From: Minisyncoccota bacterium
GTDB lineage: Bacteria; Patescibacteriota; Minisyncoccia; Phycocordibacterales; PALSA-1337
Assembly: GCA_041665325.1 (NCBI GenBank)
Contig: JBAYJB010000001.1
Coordinates: 233,286-297,285, forward strand
Length of the DNA stretch: 64,000 nucleotides
Reading direction: 5' to 3'
The notes beneath the pieces were generated by a model. The model made no database searches, was not told the DNA's origin, and worked only from the letters and a program-made list of their open reading frames with translations. The position numbers and the translations under genes were made by a program. Below, in pieces: positions 6,199 to 40,883 of this stretch (its first letter is position 1; every line of letters begins with the position of its first letter).

Positions 6199-7233
6199 AT
6201 GAAATCTCCATTCAAGACAGATCTGAAGCGCCTAGTCATATTTACCATCATCCTGATCCTGGTGGCTGGAGTCACACAGGCGGCAAATATGTATCAGGTA
6301 AGCAACCTCGCCACTTCACAGATCAATGAGTGGGGCGTCTGCGGCAATATCAACAACCAGACCGGTAAGGCGCTTTTTGTACCCACTGGATCTTCTGCGG
6401 AGTGGCTAGCCTTCAGGAATCACCTACCTCCCAATGTGACAAATACGTCATGTGTGGTTTGCGACCCTGGTACGGGCAATGCATGCAACAGTTCGCCAAA
6501 CTCCTGCGGTCAGACCGGAGCCGGGACTATCCAGTGCGACGGCAGCTGTTCCGCCAGCGTACCGAGCGATCCGGCCGGATATGGCAACATGTGCAACAGT
6601 TCGCCAAACTCCTGCGGTCAGACCAACATCGGCTCGATCGATTGTAGCGGCAACTGTTCGGCTTCGACGCCTAGCGATCCGGCTGGATATGGCAATATGT
6701 GCAACAGTTCGCCAAACTCCTGCGGTCAGACCAACATCGGCTCGATCGATTGTAGCGGCAACTGTTCGGCAACAATACCACCTGACAGTTCTTGCCCACC
6801 AACTTTAACTTGTGTCGTTGGCACATCAGAACCAGCAAATGTTCTAGGCATACAATACTATCAAGGCCAAGGGACTCGCGTACAAGCCAACCAATCATCT
6901 GCCGACTTCGCTTGTCAACAGATGGGTTACATGAACGCTACAAGCTACACAACTCAAGGATGGTCAAGTTGCGGCGATAACTGGTACGCATACGCAAACG
7001 GTGGCACATGGGGGCATGTGAGTGGTTGCGACCCGAGTTCGGGTATCAATTATATCAATTGTTACGGAGAGGGTTCGGTGTGTCAAAATGTGTGCGGCAA
7101 TAACGTAGTCGATCCTGGAGAAAGCTGTGACGGCAACGATTCAGAGGATTACACTTATTGCGGCGACCCAACCTGGACTTGCAGTTCAAACTGTACCAAG
7201 AAATATGCCATCGTCGGAGGTGAATGCAACTAA
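6199..7233 (+). CDS. secreted cysteine-rich protein with three tandem ~36-aa repeats
   Basis: Signal peptide. Repeats CNSSPNSCGQT(G/N)xG(T/S)I(Q/D)C(D/S)G(S/N)CSAS(V/T)PSDPAGYGNM occur three times. There are more than 30 Cys overall and the C-terminal domain is also Cys-rich. Confidence 0.55.
   Translation: MKSPFKTDLKRLVIFTIILILVAGVTQAANMYQVSNLATSQINEWGVCGNINNQTGKALFVPTGSSAEWLAFRNHLPPNVTNTSCVVCDPGTGNACNSSPNSCGQTGAGTIQCDGSCSASVPSDPAGYGNMCNSSPNSCGQTNIGSIDCSGNCSASTPSDPAGYGNMCNSSPNSCGQTNIGSIDCSGNCSATIPPDSSCPPTLTCVVGTSEPANVLGIQYYQGQGTRVQANQSSADFACQQMGYMNATSYTTQGWSSCGDNWYAYANGGTWGHVSGCDPSSGINYINCYGEGSVCQNVCGNNVVDPGESCDGNDSEDYTYCGDPTWTCSSNCTKKYAIVGGECN
6484..6790 (+). repeat. tandem direct repeat, 108-bp unit, about 2.8 copies (in-frame within the Cys-rich CDS)
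   Basis: TGCAACAGTTCGCCAAACTCCTGCGGTCAGACC recurs at 6484, 6592 and 6700. Copies 2 and 3 are nearly identical over about 70 nt. Confidence 0.8.
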
Positions 7234-12853: not shown

Positions 12854-13118
12854 TTTACGGGGCACAAAGCAATAAATCAAATAGGTGGTTGTTTTGACAA
12901 CGCATCTTGAACACCCGGCTAACATATCGCCTTTCTATCAAAAATTTCTAAGACATTTCACGAAAAGCATTGTCTAGTAACATCGGCGGCGTAAGGCTCG
13001 TTTGGAATGCAAAAATATTATACGACACAAAACAGGCCTTCCGTTTTTACGAGAAAAAGAAGGTCGAACCGGCGGGGCAAGTCAAAAAAAGTCGCTCCAC
13101 ACCCCTCACCAGCACCTT

Positions 13119-13149
13119 CCCTTGACCGTTTCCTATATGCTAAAATACT
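13119..13149 (+). promoter_or_regulatory. sigma-70-like promoter for the thrS leader
   Basis: TTGACC, a 16-17 nt spacer, then TAAAAT at about 13119-13149. It lies about 230 nt upstream of the thrS ATG. Confidence 0.3.
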
Positions 13150-13360
13150 CCCATCAGAGATCGTTACGGCCACCAACCGTAAACGGGAAACCGAGGCTAT
13201 TGAGCCCTAATCTGATCAACGAGCGTCCGGCCTTGCCGGAAAGTCAGGTGGAACCACGGTCGCGCGGGCATTCGCCCCACAGATCGCCCTGACAAAGTCA
13301 CGATTGCCTCCGTCAGCTGACGGATGGCGAAAATTCGCGATTTTGTCAGGGCTATTTTAT
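13150..13360 (+). ncRNA. candidate T-box riboswitch leader (threonine specifier) upstream of thrS
   Basis: The leader has four T-box-like elements. An AGAGA box sits at 13154-13158. An ACC-A candidate specifier lies in a loop at 13170-13176. AAAGTCAGGTGGAACCACGG at 13241-13260 matches the conserved T-box core AAnnnGGGUGGnACCnCGG, and its UGGA bulge is complementary to the UCCA end of tRNA-Thr. A long hairpin at 13286-13352 is followed by a TTTT run. Confidence 0.45.
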
Positions 13361-13379
13361 TACTCTAATTATTAACTAC

Positions 13380-15131
13380 ATGTCATCCTCCCAATCACTC
13401 GAACACCTCCGCCACACCCTCGCGCACCTCACGGCTGCCGCTATCCTGGAACTATACCCCGATGCCAAGCCATCTATCGGCCCGGCCATAGACAACGGCT
13501 TCTACTACGACTTCGAGTTCGCCCAGCCGATCGTCGAAACCGACCTCAAGGCCATCGAGAAGAAGATGCACAAGCTCCTCAACTCCTGGACCGCCATGAC
13601 CGGCAAGGAAGTCACGGAGAAAGAGGCGCGGGCGGCATTTGCTGGCAACCCCTACAAGCTCGAGCTCATCGATGAGATCGTGGCGAAGGGCGAGAAGATC
13701 ACACTCTATACGGCCGGCTCATTCACCGACCTTTGCCGTGGCGGACACACCGACAACCCAGCCAAAGAGATCGACCAGGACGGCTTCAAGCTCTCGCGCC
13801 TAGCCGGCGCCTATTGGCGCGGCGACGAGAAGAATAAACAGCTCACCCGCATATACGGCCTAGCATTCGAGTCAAGGGCCGCCCTCGACGAATACGAAAC
13901 CATGATGCGCGAAGCCGAGAAACGCGACCACCGCAAGCTCGGCAAGGAGATGGATATCTTCGAGTTCGACGACGATGTCGGCCCCGGCCTCCCACTATGG
14001 CTCCCCAACGGCGCCGTCATCGCCGAGGAGCTTGAGAAGCTCGCCAAAGAGACCGAATTCGCCGCCGGCTACAAGATCGTGCGCACCCCGCATATCGCCA
14101 AGGAATCGATGTACCTGAAAAGCGGACACCTGCCTTACTACAAGGAGAGCATGTTTCCTCCCATGGAGTACGAGGGCGGCAAATATTACCTGAAGGCCAT
14201 GAATTGTCCGCACCACCACAAGATCTTTGCTGCTCGGCCCCACTCATACCGCGACCTGCCGCTACGCCTCGCCGAATACGGCACCTGCTACCGCCACGAG
14301 AAGTCCGGCGAGCTCTTTGGCCTGATGCGTGTGCGCATGCTCGAGATGAACGACGCTCATATGTATTGCACCGAAGATCAGTTCGCCGACGAATTCAGAG
14401 CCGTAAATGAGATGTACATCAACTATTTTAAGATCTTCGGCATCGGCAAATATGTCATGCGCTTCTCCACCCATGACCCCAAGAAGCTCGGCCAGAAATA
14501 CGTCGATGAGCCGGGGCTCTGGAAGAAGACCGAGGATATGGTCCGCAAGGTCCTCGTGGACTCCAAGATCCCCTTCGTCGAGGTGGCAAACGAGGCAGCC
14601 TTCTACGGCCCCAAGATCGACGTCCAGGTCTGGAGCGCCATCGGCCGTGAATTCACGCTAGCGACCAACCAAGTAGACTTCGCCGTCCCGAAGCGGTTCG
14701 GCCTGGAATACATCGATGCCGACGGCCAAAAGAAGACTCCGCTCTGCATCCACCGTGCGCCGCTCGGCACCCACGAGCGCTTCATCGGCTTCCTCATAGA
14801 GCACTACGGCGGCAACTTCCCGCTCTGGCTCTCGCCCACGCAAGTCAAGGTCATTCCCGTGGCCGAATCTCATGTCGCAGCCGCCGAGAAGATCAATGCC
14901 GCCCTACGCGCCGTCATGATCCGCGCCGAAGTAGACCTGTCGAACGACAACTTCGGCAAGAAGGTCCGGAACGCCAAGAATGCCCGCATCCCCTATTTCA
15001 TCATCATCGGCGACAAGGATATCCAAGCCGGCAAGGTCACTCTGGAAAGTCGCGACCAGGGCCAGATCGGGCAATTAGATATCGGAGAGGTGCTGAAGAA
15101 ACTGGATGTCGAAATCAAGGACAGAAAATAG
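13380..15131 (+). CDS. thrS: threonyl-tRNA synthetase (N-terminally reduced form)
   Basis: 583 aa with class II aaRS core motifs and a C-terminal anticodon-binding domain. The N-terminus LEHLRHTLAHLTAAAI matches the ThrRS second additional domain. The TGS/editing domains are absent. Confidence 0.9.
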   Translation: MSSSQSLEHLRHTLAHLTAAAILELYPDAKPSIGPAIDNGFYYDFEFAQPIVETDLKAIEKKMHKLLNSWTAMTGKEVTEKEARAAFAGNPYKLELIDEIVAKGEKITLYTAGSFTDLCRGGHTDNPAKEIDQDGFKLSRLAGAYWRGDEKNKQLTRIYGLAFESRAALDEYETMMREAEKRDHRKLGKEMDIFEFDDDVGPGLPLWLPNGAVIAEELEKLAKETEFAAGYKIVRTPHIAKESMYLKSGHLPYYKESMFPPMEYEGGKYYLKAMNCPHHHKIFAARPHSYRDLPLRLAEYGTCYRHEKSGELFGLMRVRMLEMNDAHMYCTEDQFADEFRAVNEMYINYFKIFGIGKYVMRFSTHDPKKLGQKYVDEPGLWKKTEDMVRKVLVDSKIPFVEVANEAAFYGPKIDVQVWSAIGREFTLATNQVDFAVPKRFGLEYIDADGQKKTPLCIHRAPLGTHERFIGFLIEHYGGNFPLWLSPTQVKVIPVAESHVAAAEKINAALRAVMIRAEVDLSNDNFGKKVRNAKNARIPYFIIIGDKDIQAGKVTLESRDQGQIGQLDIGEVLKKLDVEIKDRK

Positions 15132-15223: not shown

Positions 15224-16312
15224 TTAGATCTTCGGGCGATTGAAGAGGAGATACATCACCGTGCCACCGAGGACAAGGATGATGAGGACTGCTACCCAGC
15301 CCCAAGGCACATTGTTGAGTGAGAAGTAGGAAGCGGCACCAAGAGGGTTGCCCTGATTCTGGACGGCCGGCGATTGTACCGGAGCGGCTGAAGCCAGAGT
15401 GGTCGTGGTACGACGGATGGCAAGGGCGTTGGAACAAGCCTTGGTGCCGGTGCGGCCGTCGGCCGAGGTCACCGAGACGATGGCGCTCTTTTCGCCGGTA
15501 GTCTCATAGTACTTGGTGACCGAGCTCTGTGTGCCGGCAAGACTGTCGGAACCAGTCCAGGAATAGGTATAAGGGGCGATGCCGCCGGTCACTTCGACAG
15601 ACCAGGTGACAGGCTGATTCGGAGCAGCATTGGCCGGATCGGCGAAACAACCGATGTCGAGGCCGGTGTTGTTCGAGGCATAGACCGGAACCTGGTTGTA
15701 GCTGTAGTTGTTGTTATAGTACGGCTGGGTGTAGTTATAATTGTAGTTATAACCATAATTCTGTTGGTAGACGTTGACCGTAGACGAACAGTTGGCAGTG
15801 ACGCTCTGACCATTGGAATACACCGTGACCGTGGCGGTCTTCATGCCTTGGGAGTAATAACTGAAGCTGACCGTCTGGCCGTTTCCATAGAGTCCGTCAT
15901 TGCCTGTCCAGGTATAGCTGTAAGAACCATTGCCGCCGGAAGCGTAAGCCTGCCACTGGACCGAGGAACCGGTCTGCACCGAAGAGTTCAGAGCGGAACA
16001 GGTGGCGGTCAGAGACTGGTAGGTCGGCTGGTTATAGACCGGAGGAGTGTAGGTCGGGTAGTTATTGTAGACTACCGGAGCCTGGGTCTGGACCTGGTTC
16101 GGATAGTTACAGTAGTAATAGCCGTTCGGGGCTACGCTAGCGACCTGCGGATAAGAACAGTAAGGCAAAACGGGTGCCTCATAGTGATACTGATACTGGG
16201 CCTGTGCCTCGGCCGGGAAAGCGGCCATAGAGAGGCCGAAAACCAGGACGGCAAAAGCCGTACCGAGAGCGACGTTAGTTTTGTTGAATAGATTTTTCAT
16301 ATTTTTTGCCAT
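15224..16312 (-). CDS. secreted N/Y/Q-rich surface protein with two PKD/Ig-like repeats and a C-terminal TM anchor
   Basis: Signal peptide. Repeats SYSYTWTGNDG and PYTYSWTGSDS fit a PKD-like beta-sandwich. NYNYNY low-complexity segments. C-terminal hydrophobic helix followed by NRPKI. Confidence 0.5.
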   Translation of the reverse strand: MAKNMKNLFNKTNVALGTAFAVLVFGLSMAAFPAEAQAQYQYHYEAPVLPYCSYPQVASVAPNGYYYCNYPNQVQTQAPVVYNNYPTYTPPVYNQPTYQSLTATCSALNSSVQTGSSVQWQAYASGGNGSYSYTWTGNDGLYGNGQTVSFSYYSQGMKTATVTVYSNGQSVTANCSSTVNVYQQNYGYNYNYNYTQPYYNNNYSYNQVPVYASNNTGLDIGCFADPANAAPNQPVTWSVEVTGGIAPYTYSWTGSDSLAGTQSSVTKYYETTGEKSAIVSVTSADGRTGTKACSNALAIRRTTTTLASAAPVQSPAVQNQGNPLGAASYFSLNNVPWGWVAVLIILVLGGTVMYLLFNRPKI

Positions 16313-33299: not shown

Positions 33300-33377
33300 G
33301 CCCCTTATTATATCAAGTCATCTTTCATCCGCCAACTTATACAAAGAACAAGCGCCCCGTTAAGGAGCGCTTATTCA

Positions 33378-33720
33378 TGTGCGTCGCACATAAGCCGAAT
33401 TCTGTCGAGGACAACCATATATCTTGGATGCATGTTGCCATGCACCTCTAGCGGTTCTTCCCTCTGCCTTGCGGCATGGGACGCGACCTTGCACCGAGGT
33501 AAGGATTTGGCCGTTGCACCTCCCAAGTTTCCATGGGAGCTAATCCCGAAGGATCCGCGTGCCGTTTCCAGCCCGCGCGTCTCTGTTCGCACCTCTAGGA
33601 TCACCCTGACGGGCATTACCCGCTACCCTGCTATCTGGCCTTGCGGCCAGCCGGTGTTCGGACTTTCCTCACGCGAGACGCTCCTTGCGAAGGCCCGCGC
33701 GCGATTGCCTATGCGACTGA
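33378..33720 (-). ncRNA. rnpB: RNase P RNA (bacterial, reduced type A-like)
   Basis: On the minus strand the P4 5' strand GAGGAAAGUCCGAACACC is the complement of plus 33653-33670. The P4 3' strand ACAGAAUUCGGCUUAUG is the complement of 33389-33405, with perfect complementarity between them. P1 termini pair (GUCGCAUAGG with CUUAUGUGCGAC). Length is about 340 nt. Not in the ORF track. Confidence 0.7.
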
Positions 33721-38123: not shown

Positions 38124-40883
38124 TTATTTCTGATACTTCTTCATGACTTCGGCTTCGACCTCGGCGCGCGGGCGGCCGAATGTGAGGGCGGATATCTCCT
38201 TGAGCTTGTCTGCCTGACCGGAGTCGCCCTTCTCGGGCGGCATGATCGCGATATTGAAAGGCTTGGCCGGACGGCCACCGGAAAGGAGCTTCACATAGGC
38301 GTTGAAGTTGTCCAGGTTGGTGATGTCGGTTTGCGTGAAGACTGGCGTGAATTGCTTCTCGAGATATTCGGCATCATCACTGCCGACGCGGAAGACCGCC
38401 ATCGAACCGACGTTGCCAAAGACGGCATTCTTGATCTTGTCATCGAGCTGACCGATGAACTGATGCGCCACAGTGAGCGCCAGGCGGTACTTGCGCGCTT
38501 CGGAAAGGATGGTGGAGATCGAGTCGGTGGTGATATTTTGGAACTCATCCAGATACAGGAAGAAGTCAGGCATATCCTTGCCGAATGAGTCCACGCGGGA
38601 GAGCGCGGCCATGAGGATCTTGCCGACTAGGATGAGGCCAATCAGGTGCGAGTTGATGTCGCCGAGGCGGCCCTTGGAGAGATTGACTAGCAGGATCTTC
38701 TTCTTGTCCATGATCTCGCGCATATTGAAAGACGACTGCTCTTGGGCGATGATCGGGCGCATGACCTCGTTCGAGAGGAAGACATCGAACTTCGAGGTGA
38801 TATAGGGCACGATATTGGCGAGCGAAGCTTCCCCGCCGGCCTTCTCGGCGATCTCCTTCCAGAACTGGACGACCACGGGATTCTTGCACCGGCTGATCTT
38901 GAGCTCGCGGAAAGCCTTGTTGGACATGACGCGCGAGACATCAAGGAGCGTCGAACCACTATCAGGATCTTCGATGACCAGGTTGGTGGCGTTGCGGAAA
39001 TACTGCTCGAACATCGGCCCCATGGATTCCGGCACAGCGCCGTAGAGCTTCTGGAAGATGCTGAACATCTCGTTGACCACGAAAGTCTTCTGCTCGGGAT
39101 AACGGCGGTCGAACTCGAGCATATTGAGGCCCATCGGCCGCTCGACGGATGCCGGGTCGAAATAGATGACATCCTCATAGCGCTCCGGCGGGATGCGGGC
39201 GAGGATATCGGCGACGTCGGAGCCGTGCGGATCGATGAAACACACGCCGTGGCCGTCCTCGATGTCCTGGATGATCATGTTCTTGAGGAGTGTGGTCTTG
39301 CCGGTGCCGGTCTGGCCGATGACATAGAAGTGGCGCATGCGGTCCTCCGGCGCGATGTATACCGGCACTTCGGAGCCGCGGTGGCGGTTGACACCGAGGA
39401 GTGTGCCGGCCTTGGGCAGGTCGAGTGGCAAGGGCGACGTACCGGCCTTGGACTGTTTGAGCTGCGGCGCGGCCTTGCCGACATGCGCGGCCGGGAAATG
39501 CATGGTCGTGGTCAGCTCCTCGAGATTGAGGACGATCGAATCCTTCTCATCAAAAGTACGCAAGGAGAACCTTTCCAGTAGATTTTCCAGATTATCTTTC
39601 TCTATCTTCTGCCATTCGATACGATTGCCATGGCCGTCCTCGAACTGGTTGAAGCTTGATTCGAGGTCATGAAGGATGCCGGCCGCCTCAGCCTGACTCG
39701 CGGCCGAAGCGACAATGCGGATGTCTACAGAGACAAGCGGGCTCTTGATCTTGCGCGTGAACTGTTCCACGGCAGTCTGGTCGACGGCCCCGACGCGCTT
39801 CTCCCGGTCCTCCTTGTCCTTCTTGATCTGTTCAACGCTTTTGAACATGTTGAGGACATCCTTGGTGAATCCTCCAATGAGCGACTGCCCGACTTCCTTG
39901 AGCGCCTCACCCACCTTCTCTCCCTTACGAATCTTCTCGATAGCCCTGGTCGCTTCTTTCATGTATCCGTCGCGGCGCGCGCCAATCACGAATTGGATGG
40001 CCGCACCCTCGCCCTCACGATCGATCTTGGAAAAGCTGTTCAGGATGCCGGAAAGCGGGTCGATATCAAAAGATTCGTAAGATTTGAGCGGGTAGAGGAA
40101 ATGTCTAGAGAGCCGGGCGCAAGAAGCAGCCGAGGCGCCGGCCGGGTTGAAGATATTATAGTCATCCTTGTGCTCGTGGATGTGTGCTTCCGAGAAGACG
40201 GCCAGGATCTGCTTCTCGAAGAGCTCCTTGCGCGGGGTCGGCACGGAGACATAGAAGACAAACTCGTCGCTGCCGTTCGACTTGGTGATCTCCACGGTGA
40301 ACCAGGCGGGATCCTTGGGGTCGGCGGAGACCGAAAGCATGCCGGCGTAGAATTGTTCCATGCCGGAGATGAGCGCCTTGAGCTCCTTCTGCTTGTCCTC
40401 CTCACTCGTGTCGGGCAGGCTGACCTCATAGAGCGTCATATGGAGCGGCTTCCAGAGCTCGTCGCCCTCCTTGAGACCGGAGATCGGATAGCCCGAAGAA
40501 ATAAATTGGACGAGGAAGCGGTGGAAGTCGTCTAGGAGGTGAGGATTGCCCATCTTCTCCACGACATGCATGGCATTCCTGATGCCTTTCTCCTGCATCA
40601 CGACGATCAGACCCTCGATCTGTTTGTCATGCGGCTCCGGCGAGAGCTCGAGGGTGATAGCTTCGGTCTCATGTTTAGCGATGGCGTAGTCAGGATGCAA
40701 AAGCTCGCCATGAGGGATCTTGGCGTACTGCTTCAGAGTCTCCTTGGCGACTTGCTCGCGCGTCATCTCGGCCCCGCTCTCCCGGGCACGCTCGGCGCCT
40801 TGGTCGGTGGCTTCGCGCAAGCGCGAAAGCTCTTCTTGCGGAGTCGACGCTTTTTCAACAGTCTCAAAACCGAGAGGCTTCAT
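38124..40883 (-). CDS. VirB4/TraC/HerA-like (DUF87, FtsK-HerA superfamily) P-loop ATPase with ~500-aa N-terminal domain
   Basis: 919 aa. Walker A GQTGTGKTT at aa 523-531 (nt about 39291-39317). The HerA-like motif CFIDPHGSD follows at aa 548-556. Walker B FFLYLDEFQ at aa 774-782. The N-terminal 500 aa have no recognised family. NCBI-style name: type IV secretion system DNA-binding domain-containing protein. Confidence 0.6.
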   Translation of the reverse strand: MKPLGFETVEKASTPQEELSRLREATDQGAERARESGAEMTREQVAKETLKQYAKIPHGELLHPDYAIAKHETEAITLELSPEPHDKQIEGLIVVMQEKGIRNAMHVVEKMGNPHLLDDFHRFLVQFISSGYPISGLKEGDELWKPLHMTLYEVSLPDTSEEDKQKELKALISGMEQFYAGMLSVSADPKDPAWFTVEITKSNGSDEFVFYVSVPTPRKELFEKQILAVFSEAHIHEHKDDYNIFNPAGASAASCARLSRHFLYPLKSYESFDIDPLSGILNSFSKIDREGEGAAIQFVIGARRDGYMKEATRAIEKIRKGEKVGEALKEVGQSLIGGFTKDVLNMFKSVEQIKKDKEDREKRVGAVDQTAVEQFTRKIKSPLVSVDIRIVASAASQAEAAGILHDLESSFNQFEDGHGNRIEWQKIEKDNLENLLERFSLRTFDEKDSIVLNLEELTTTMHFPAAHVGKAAPQLKQSKAGTSPLPLDLPKAGTLLGVNRHRGSEVPVYIAPEDRMRHFYVIGQTGTGKTTLLKNMIIQDIEDGHGVCFIDPHGSDVADILARIPPERYEDVIYFDPASVERPMGLNMLEFDRRYPEQKTFVVNEMFSIFQKLYGAVPESMGPMFEQYFRNATNLVIEDPDSGSTLLDVSRVMSNKAFRELKISRCKNPVVVQFWKEIAEKAGGEASLANIVPYITSKFDVFLSNEVMRPIIAQEQSSFNMREIMDKKKILLVNLSKGRLGDINSHLIGLILVGKILMAALSRVDSFGKDMPDFFLYLDEFQNITTDSISTILSEARKYRLALTVAHQFIGQLDDKIKNAVFGNVGSMAVFRVGSDDAEYLEKQFTPVFTQTDITNLDNFNAYVKLLSGGRPAKPFNIAIMPPEKGDSGQADKLKEISALTFGRPRAEVEAEVMKKYQK

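Follow-up and report, generated by a model that had tools for sequence, protein, structure and literature searches.

A compact T-box variant, probably sensing tRNA-Thr, upstream of thrS in a Patescibacteria genome

The thrS locus and its promoter

T-box riboswitches serve as a model for RNA-RNA recognition of tRNA and as antibiotic targets, and they are described as mainly Gram-positive. Patescibacteria have tiny genomes, and to our knowledge hardly any RNA-based regulation has been described in them. Here we analyse the leader of the threonyl-tRNA synthetase gene thrS in a stretch of 64,000 nucleotides from a Minisyncoccota bacterium (contig JBAYJB010000001.1, positions 233,286 to 297,285), which is called the window below and whose coordinates are used throughout. 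A preliminary description of this DNA had proposed a T-box-like threonine leader in a genome of the Candidate Phyla Radiation (CPR) type. The leader is indeed supported as a T-box; it scores below the Rfam gathering score and lacks the canonical Stems I and II, so it has to be regarded as a variant. We consider it very probable that the element is a tRNA-Thr-sensing T-box that controls thrS via transcription attenuation, combining a canonical 3' discriminator with a compact, non-canonical 5' decoding domain. In terms of class, it belongs to the T-box family as a structural variant, dedicated to thrS and of the terminator type, and not as a standard member of RF00230.

ThrS of the window comprises the class II core, the anticodon-binding domain and the editing SAD domain, and a TGS domain is absent (Pfam). 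Its gene is the sole aminoacyl-tRNA synthetase (aaRS) gene found among the larger open reading frames (ORFs) of the window. The non-coding gap 5' of thrS measures about 455-540 nt, its far border being a divergent MGMT-like gene whose start lies somewhere between about 12842 and 12925. The T-box element spans 13153-13361 on the forward strand, about 210 nt of this gap, and ends 19 nt before thrS. The elements listed in the preliminary description (promoter, AGAGA, ACC-A, T-box core, UGGA, hairpin and U-run) are all present where it had placed them. The locus reads as follows:

13122-13146 (+): promoter-like region, from the sequence and a consensus scan
13153-13158 (+): 5' strand of helix P1, AUCAGA, pairing with 13211-13216 over 6 bp and closing the junction
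13159-13163 (+): J1/2, GAUCG; family consensus GAUUG, conserved in both alignments
13164-13182 (+): P2 specifier hairpin with stem 13164-13169/13177-13182, supported by covariation
13184-13193 (+): P3, an optional mini-hairpin CGG-GAAA-CCG, from minimum free energy (MFE) folding
13195-13206 (+): P4, mini-hairpin GGCU-AUUG-AGCC, abutting the invariant C of CUAA
13207-13210 (+): J4/1, CUAA; CYAA in the family
13211-13216 (+): 3' strand of P1, UCUGAU, from P1 covariation
13217-13242 (+): linker, purine string GAGCG (13221-13225), Stem III and AA, from the fold of the truncated leader
13243-13293 (+): antiterminator, forming in the truncated RNA at -19.5 kcal/mol
13286-13361 (+): intrinsic terminator, a hairpin at 13286-13352 (-44.0 kcal/mol) followed by a U-tract
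13380-15131 (+): thrS, 583 aa, the presumably regulated gene, assigned with Pfam

The promoter-like region consists of a -35-like hexamer TTGACC (13122-13127) and a -10 hexamer TAAAAT (13141-13146) at a separation of just 13 nt, the latter preceded by TG at 13138-13139 in the manner of an extended -10 element. A consensus promoter scan prefers TTGACC together with AATACT at a spacing of 16 nt. Among the related leaders introduced below, 93 of 122 distinct members have a -10-like hexamer that ends 8-12 nt 5' of AGA in P1, with a mode of 9 nt that equals the spacing in the window. Because this distance is fixed across the family, the transcript would begin at P1, which in the window means near 13153. 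A second promoter-like site (TTGTCA-18-AATTAT, 13343-13372, forward strand) lies within the 3' arm and the U-tract of the terminator and is a consensus match only. If active, it would allow a basal thrS expression independent of the T-box.

Antiterminator and terminator compete for one segment

The full leader folds as a long hairpin, with z = -5.9 for the whole fold relative to shuffled sequences. Truncation before the 3' arm yields a different MFE structure, in which helix A1 (13243-13248/13288-13293, GUCAGG/CCUGAC) and helix A2 (13256-13261/13282-13287, with an inner hairpin at 13266-13277) flank the 7-nt T-box bulge UGGAACC at 13249-13255, its UGGA occupying 13249-13252. The segment 13286-13293 is used twice, as a strand of the antiterminator and in the 5' arm of the terminator. 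This mutually exclusive pairing, which the preliminary description had anticipated, involves GGUGGAACC, and both partners are backed by compensatory changes in alignments of 16 and of 99 sequences. Upstream of A1, Stem III (13226-13231/13235-13240, 6 bp, loop CUU) is followed by AA at 13241-13242 and separated by about 9 nt from the 3' strand of P1. The layout of RRRxG, Stem III and AA agrees with the definition given in a review of T-boxes (PMC7583486). Nearly all family members have AA in front of A1, RRRxG is common, and Stem III is lacking in about 20%.

The T-box core GGTGGAACCACG at 13247-13258 is the window's sole match to GGTGGNACCRCG, where chance alone would give 0.01; GGUGGAACCACG is located at these same positions. 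Compared with the published 14-nt T-box sequence AGGGUGGNACCGCG, 13245-13258 agrees at 10 of 13 specified positions. On the 3' side, UAUUUUAUUA directly follows the long hairpin, and the U-rich tract UAUUUUAUU occupies 13353-13361. A simple terminator scan of the window returned nothing at the leader because the hairpin exceeds the limits of that scan (stem of at most 20 bp, loop of at most 8 nt).

Two alignments were used, a plain MAFFT alignment of 16 leaders and a model-fitted alignment of 99 sequences, the latter leaning towards the structure of the model itself. In the MAFFT alignment 85.4% of the positions expected to pair did so for the antiterminator model and 88.8% for the terminator model, compared with about 35% in slid controls, and none of 500 shuffles reached the observed pairing. 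Columns 219-224 of this alignment covary with both alternative partners. The 99 sequences gave 90.5% pairing versus about 36% in slid controls. Helix A1 was paired in 96% with compensatory changes in four of its six pairs, and the terminator in 91.7% with compensatory changes in 12 of 18 pairs. In each of the 123 members the terminator exceeds the antiterminator in stability, and a U-rich tract follows the hairpin in every member. As modelled, the arrangement is that of a default-OFF T-box. A covariance model of the compact element built in this analysis (R1) scored the members at 58-111 bits and found exactly one copy in the window, with no second.

A closed junction presents a threonine codon in an apical loop

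The decoding domain, as obtained from the MFE fold of the truncated leader, comprises the 64 nt from 13153 to 13216; P1 closes this junction, and an apical loop displays the codon. P1 is 95.5% paired in the 99 sequences and shows double-sided changes in four of five pairs in the family register NNAGA/UCUNN. An alternative register, AGAUUG/CUAAUCU, was rejected for this class since covariation tracks NNAGA/UCUNN instead. What had been noted as an AGAGA box (13156-13160) is P1 and J1/2 taken together. The ACC-A noted as a candidate specifier (13172-13175) sits in the 7-nt loop CCACCAA (13170-13176) of P2, with the threonine codon ACC at 13172-13174 and the conserved purine A at 13175. Family-wide, P2 has a stem of 6-7 bp with compensatory changes in six of seven stem pairs and a loop of 7 nt.

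Between P2 and the 3' strand of P1 there are only two mini-hairpins of 2-6 bp, one of them optional. This is P3, which is found in many family members and missing from the shortest ones. A hairpin at the position of P4 occurs in 104 of 107 distinct sequences versus about 55 in shuffles, is built from 50 distinct stems, and measures 2-5 bp with a GNRA loop being common. The C ahead of UAAUCU is kept in 106 of the 107 distinct sequences. We also considered the triplet CUA/CCA of J4/1, which stands at the canonical specifier position, and rejected it as specifier because it alternates between Leu and Pro codons in front of the same gene. No IIB pairing partner is evident for P4 and CCUAA, which Rfam aligns to Stem IIA and the F-box. 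Reading AGA-GA/AA-UCU as K-turn-like is conjecture.

Base 4 of J1/2 (GAU[U/C]G) and base 2 of J4/1 (C[U/C]AA) change together in the window and the leaders L002-L057, with U-U in 11 leaders, C-C in four and C-U in the window alone. Behind this co-change there may be a tertiary or non-Watson-Crick contact, or phylogeny alone.

Codon and tRNA specificity

The survey of metagenome contigs described below lists 120 matches, to which the following counts refer. Seventy-seven of them have the P2 loop CUACCAA and 8 have CCACCAA, and nearly all others contain ACC. Altogether about 110 hold ACC, and one holds ACG, also a threonine codon. Ninety-four loops of 7 nt could be compared position by position: C (82) or U (12) at position 1; U (74), C (16), A (3) or G (1) at position 2; ACC (93) or ACG (1) at positions 3-5; a purine in all 94 at position 6 (A in 92, G in 2); and mostly A at position 7. 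The bulge reads UGGA in 116 matches, UGGG in three and UGGU in one.

tRNA-Thr(UGU) genes were found on the member contigs L115 and L189. Both end in ...AGGUGGC-U-CCA, and their U73-C-C-A is exactly complementary to UGGA, as had been supposed from the UCCA end of tRNA-Thr. For comparison, the tRNAs encoded in the window carry A73 (Leu, Phe, Arg and Gly) or G73 (Ser and Asn). The assignment to threonine is thus supported by the ACC loop and by thrS downstream in 110 of the 120 matches listed, and by U73 on two member contigs. The leader probably senses uncharged tRNA-Thr. The ACC:GGU pair is relatively strong, like GGC:GCC, and by analogy this may explain why the reduced scaffold has been seen for threonine only.

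A gene for tRNA-Ile(UAU) lies near the thrS T-box on two contigs (L101, 2198-2271, reverse strand; L185, 1795-1868, forward strand). This tRNA is uncommon in bacteria, where AUA is usually read by a lysidine-modified CAU tRNA.

Occurrence in related genomes and metagenomes

Relatives were taken as the best 50 ThrS matches in GTDB species genomes. Nearly all of these loci come from metagenome-assembled genomes (MAGs) with Patescibacteria-type labels (62-81% identical), followed by Bacteroidota and others at about 60%, which accords with the CPR-type genome suspected earlier. The labels include Paceibacterota, Nomura-, Taylor- and Kaiserbacteria, Parcubacteria, a generic 'Saccharibacteria', a few instances of 'uncultured bacterium' and, among these 50 loci, one Gammaproteobacteria label. 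Of the MAGs that belong to the class, three bear the label Gammaproteobacteria and one Peregrinibacteria. The motif AARNNNGGUGGAACCRCG was found 5' of thrS in 17 of the best 50 loci, with UGGA in all of them. The covariance model adds one locus, L003, so that the architecture seen in the window recurs in 18 MAG loci and, in addition, in at least 120 metagenome stretches. In L003 (762-922, ThrS 80% identical, 41.9 bits) the ACC hairpin is kept and the bulge region reads GGUUGGAAAACG rather than GGUGGAACCG; this element may be a decaying or divergent copy.

Metagenome contigs were scanned with the pattern AGAGATTG-N(35-65)-TAATCT-N(20-50)-GGTGGNACCRCG, leaving the loop and the variable base of the bulge unconstrained. 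At least 120 stretches contain the pattern. thrS lies 3' of the element in 110 of the 120 matches listed, and seven of the remaining ten have less than 240 nt of downstream sequence. The taxonomy of these matches was approximated by the nearest labelled ThrS. For all 77 metagenome ThrS sequences of sufficient length this was a Patescibacteria protein (46-61% identity) and never one from Bacteroidota or Verrucomicrobiota. These neighbours would fit a spread across deep CPR lineages, short of proof, and the compact class is apparently CPR-wide. Well over a hundred independent sequences share a terminator-type T-box whose 64-nt decoding junction shows the codon in an apical loop, and those with a taxon label are almost all Patescibacteria MAGs.

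With loop and bulge left free, the sole non-Thr match among those listed was a canonical tyrS T-box (L089); its bulge is UGGU, UAC occupies the internal position usual for a specifier, and a TyrS-like N-terminus is encoded downstream. Two further matches (L132, 443-568, reverse strand; L188, 3904-4004, forward strand) are low-GC thrS leaders that precede a TGS-type ThrS and have a tRNA Phe-Gly-Cys cluster as neighbour. Their Stem I is short, at about 57 nt, ACU-A stands at the canonical internal specifier position, and Stem II is lacking; they represent another reduced terminator-type T-box, distinct from the CPR class. In these three canonical matches the strands AGAGAUUG...UAAUCU form the base of Stem I, which means that the AGAGA...UCU base helix is shared with the compact leaders. 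This correspondence and the Rfam alignment of P4 suggest that the junction is probably a rearranged remnant of canonical T-box parts.

Some members differ in their downstream genes. One contig (L146) carries two compact Thr T-boxes, at 561-690 and 1484-1649, of which the second precedes thrS. The first has its own terminator and is followed by an unrelated ORF of about 170-220 aa that ends with a terminator of its own, indicating that the scaffold occasionally serves a gene other than thrS. A small gene, MazG-like by eye (MDLKKYQKMCGDTAAHY...GDMLWY), stands between T-box and thrS in L044 (2564-2992, on a contig shared with L151), and a gene for a 101-aa protein in L043 (1136-1441). Judging from their position, both intervening genes would be co-regulated.

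Relation to RF00230 and points against a T-box

In a permissive Rfam scan RF00230 was the only meaningful family match on the leader. Its alignment is good in the 3' half and reduces 92 Stem I positions to 13 nt, which bears out the earlier remark that the leader is compact. RF00230 was also the top family at the leader in 19 of 20 metagenome members tested, at 21-39.5 bits with E values down to 2e-5, so the expectation of an RF00230 match holds for the relatives; for the window alone the match is weak. Since the scores are far under the Rfam threshold, the class has been left unannotated. Judged by their sequences, the members are homologous to T-boxes in the discriminator. A minus-strand match to mir-3660 in the same permissive scan was discarded; it reflects the terminator palindrome only.

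Several observations weigh against the leader being a T-box that senses tRNA-Thr at the level of transcription. At the gathering threshold, Rfam reports only RNase P RNA and six tRNAs in the window and a T-box neither there nor in 19 related loci. In the permissive scan RF00230 scores 12.2 bits (E = 3) at the leader, the gathering score being 93, which no family member reaches. The top pair of A2 is A-C in the window, where the canonical pair is G-U. The leader is devoid of a long Stem I with K-turn, of an internal specifier loop with S-turn and of an elbow platform, and the S-turn of Stem II and the IIA/B pseudoknot are absent as well. According to the review cited above, a long Stem I that carries the elbow-binding platform is generally needed in transcriptional T-boxes (PMC7583486). 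No tRNA-Thr gene was found in the window or in its 10-kb left extension in a related contig (L201, described below); in sets of 56, 60 and 60 loci the search for tRNA-Thr returned the two UGU genes and no GGU isoacceptor. Finally, in some 30 further close relatives thrS is preceded by no such leader and just a short, plain promoter region, which makes the element patchy and dispensable.

Comparison with known T-box systems

The compact leader shares with canonical class I T-boxes (RF00230, e.g. tyrS and thrS of Bacillus subtilis) the 7-nt UGGNACC bulge between A1 and A2, the string of RRRxG, Stem III and AA, and the mutually exclusive intrinsic terminator. As in those T-boxes, the specifier codon with its following purine matches the regulated aaRS, and the variable base of the bulge is complementary to the tRNA discriminator base. 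It differs in that the Stem I of about 90 nt, the S-turn specifier loop and the distal platform of interdigitated T-loops for the tRNA elbow are missing, as are Stem II and the IIA/B pseudoknot. Its codon is instead displayed by a short hairpin, in an apical loop of 7 nt, and this hairpin is part of a three- or four-way junction that P1 closes; the canonical specifier position holds CYA-A. Accordingly, members of the compact class reach 12-40 bits against the RF00230 gathering score of 93.

Actinobacterial ileS translational T-boxes with a short or 'ultrashort' Stem I were reportedly described by Sherwood and colleagues in 2015; structures of this group are 6UFG and 6UFM. These T-boxes ('class II' in TBDB) resemble the compact class in their apical-loop specifier, the lack of an elbow platform and the compact decoding module. 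Apical-loop specifiers on a short Stem I are known from translational, mostly actinobacterial ileS T-boxes, in which Stem II and the IIA/B pseudoknot become essential (PMC7583486 and later papers). However, ileS T-boxes have a linear layout made up of a Stem I that contains a K-turn, a long Stem II that contains an S-turn, and the IIA/B pseudoknot, each of them reported to be essential, where the compact class has P1 enclosing P2-P4. The ileS T-boxes also act by sequestration of the Shine-Dalgarno sequence, on isoleucine and in Actinobacteria, as opposed to a terminator, threonine and Patescibacteria. A sequestrator masking the Shine-Dalgarno sequence, by which 'class II' T-boxes are defined, is not part of the compact leader. 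The compact class joins an apical-loop specifier to a terminator platform and adds the closing helix P1.

Among the transcriptional T-boxes, the minimal well-studied example glyQS is likewise of the terminator type and works without Stem II. Glycine T-boxes can spare Stem II because the GGC:GCC codon-anticodon pair is strong (PMC7583486). Unlike the compact class, glyQS retains, and needs, the long Stem I, complete with its K-turn, internal specifier loop and elbow platform. In terms of mechanism only, anticodon-anticodon or kissing-loop complexes may offer a further parallel: the P2 loop has 7 nt of the form Y-U-NNN-R-N with a triplet complementary to the tRNA-Thr anticodon. The P2 stem has 6-7 bp, in contrast to the 5 bp of an anticodon stem.

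A full-text literature search returned no paper pairing T-boxes with the Candidate Phyla Radiation, Patescibacteria or Parcubacteria. TBDB looked for short-Stem-I T-boxes in Actinobacteria only.

Proposed mechanism and implications

By analogy with characterised T-boxes we infer tRNA binding, sensing of the charging state and termination in vivo. Transcription would begin near 13153, and the first 64 nt or so would fold into the P1-closed junction, in which the P2 loop CCACCAA displays ACC and the adjacent purine. The anticodon GGU of tRNA-Thr would pair with ACC. If the tRNA is uncharged, its U73-C-C-A could pair with UGGA of the bulge and stabilise the weak antiterminator (-19.5 kcal/mol), so that, following the mechanism of the family, RNA polymerase would read through into thrS. 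If the tRNA is charged or absent, 13286-13293 would be taken by the terminator (-44 kcal/mol), and transcription would stop at the U-tract before thrS.

More speculatively, and with greater doubt than hope, the leader may belong to an unrecognised, CPR-widespread and thrS-dedicated minimal class of T-boxes in which a decoding domain of about 50-64 nt, free of elbow contact and Stem II, acts on transcription termination. Such a class would depart from the current rule by which control of transcription needs a long Stem I. P2 could then be a look-alike of an anticodon stem-loop that kisses tRNA-Thr, and the complementarity between its loop and the T-box sequence GGUGG would explain why only Thr-ACC uses the scaffold. 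If the compact class works as proposed in the mechanism above, it would be the smallest natural tRNA-decoding module coupled to termination and would show how much of the canonical apparatus a G+C-rich codon can spare. It would also provide CPR biology with a first amino-acid-sensing regulatory RNA and expose a blind spot in Rfam and TBDB that a dedicated covariance model could fix.

Alternative explanations

The complementarity of the P2 loop to GGUGG can also be read differently. CYACC of the loop could pair with the leader's own GGUGG and serve as an internal regulator or folding guide, instead of or besides being a specifier, so that the switch would be independent of tRNA or only partly dependent on it. 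We regard this as unlikely. Five nucleotides able to pair with GGUGG are present in 94 of 99 loops, the two pyrimidines before ACC are conserved, and the class is seen with threonine only, ACC being the only codon complementary to the GGU inside GGUGG. However, two pyrimidines ahead of the triplet are equally expected from an anticodon-loop-like fold, and the invariance of GGUGG means that the pairing can gain no covariation support. Four loops (CAACCAA three times and CGACCAA once) lose the pairing with GGUGG yet retain ACC. Ordinary decoding by tRNA, moreover, accounts for the association with thrS alone and for the purine that follows ACC, and it also explains why UGGA matches U73.

Even less likely, in our estimate, is that the same sensor acts on translation by sequestering the start site, as in actinobacterial ileS T-boxes with an apical-loop specifier. 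Apical-loop specifiers described earlier are all found in translational T-boxes, and no obvious Shine-Dalgarno sequence precedes the ATG at 13380. Yet the competing hairpin extends only to 13352, which leaves 27 nt up to this ATG, and covers neither the ribosome-binding site nor the start codon. This distance and the U-rich tract that follows the hairpin throughout the family argue against translational control, and in some members the hairpin lies at least 450 nt upstream of thrS or in front of another ORF.

We attach hardly any weight to an operator of the kind known from E. coli thrS, where ThrS recognises the anticodon GGU/CGU. In such a scheme P2, with its anticodon-loop-like loop of 7 nt upstream of thrS, would mimic the anticodon arm of tRNA-Thr and bind ThrS for autoregulation. 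This is improbable because the loop bears the codon ACC rather than the anticodon that ThrS recognises; besides, P2 is about 200 nt from the start codon and away from the ribosome-binding site, and the full T-box discriminator and terminator would be left unexplained. Attenuation by a leader peptide at threonine codons, as in the E. coli thr operon, would likewise place a terminator/antiterminator pair upstream of a threonine-related gene, but it can practically be dismissed because no frame of 13100-13379 contains a start-to-stop peptide with a run of threonine codons, conservation sits in paired RNA columns with compensatory changes and not in a reading frame, and the Thr leader family RF00506 is unmatched in the permissive Rfam scan.

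Other observations in the window

The class A RNase P RNA of the window (33376-33720, reverse strand) scores 102.1, barely above the Rfam gathering score of 100, which suggests that the RNase P RNA of this genome is divergent or reduced. Among the housekeeping genes of the window we noted a VirD4/TraG-like coupling ATPase (38124-40883, reverse strand), an ice-binding-like protein (19067-20119, reverse strand) and a PKD-domain protein (15224-16312, reverse strand). To judge by their similarities, these would be surface or transfer functions.

The contig L201 (ENA ERZ27249449, contig k141_186272, 143.7 kb) encodes the same fmt protein as the left end of the window and matches its gene order there, with tRNA-Asn, RNase R, tRNA-Leu, RNase HII and dnaE. 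The ORF at 6199-7233 of the window encodes 344 aa, and its counterpart in L201 encodes 308 aa. L201 is a closely related strain, distinct from the window record.

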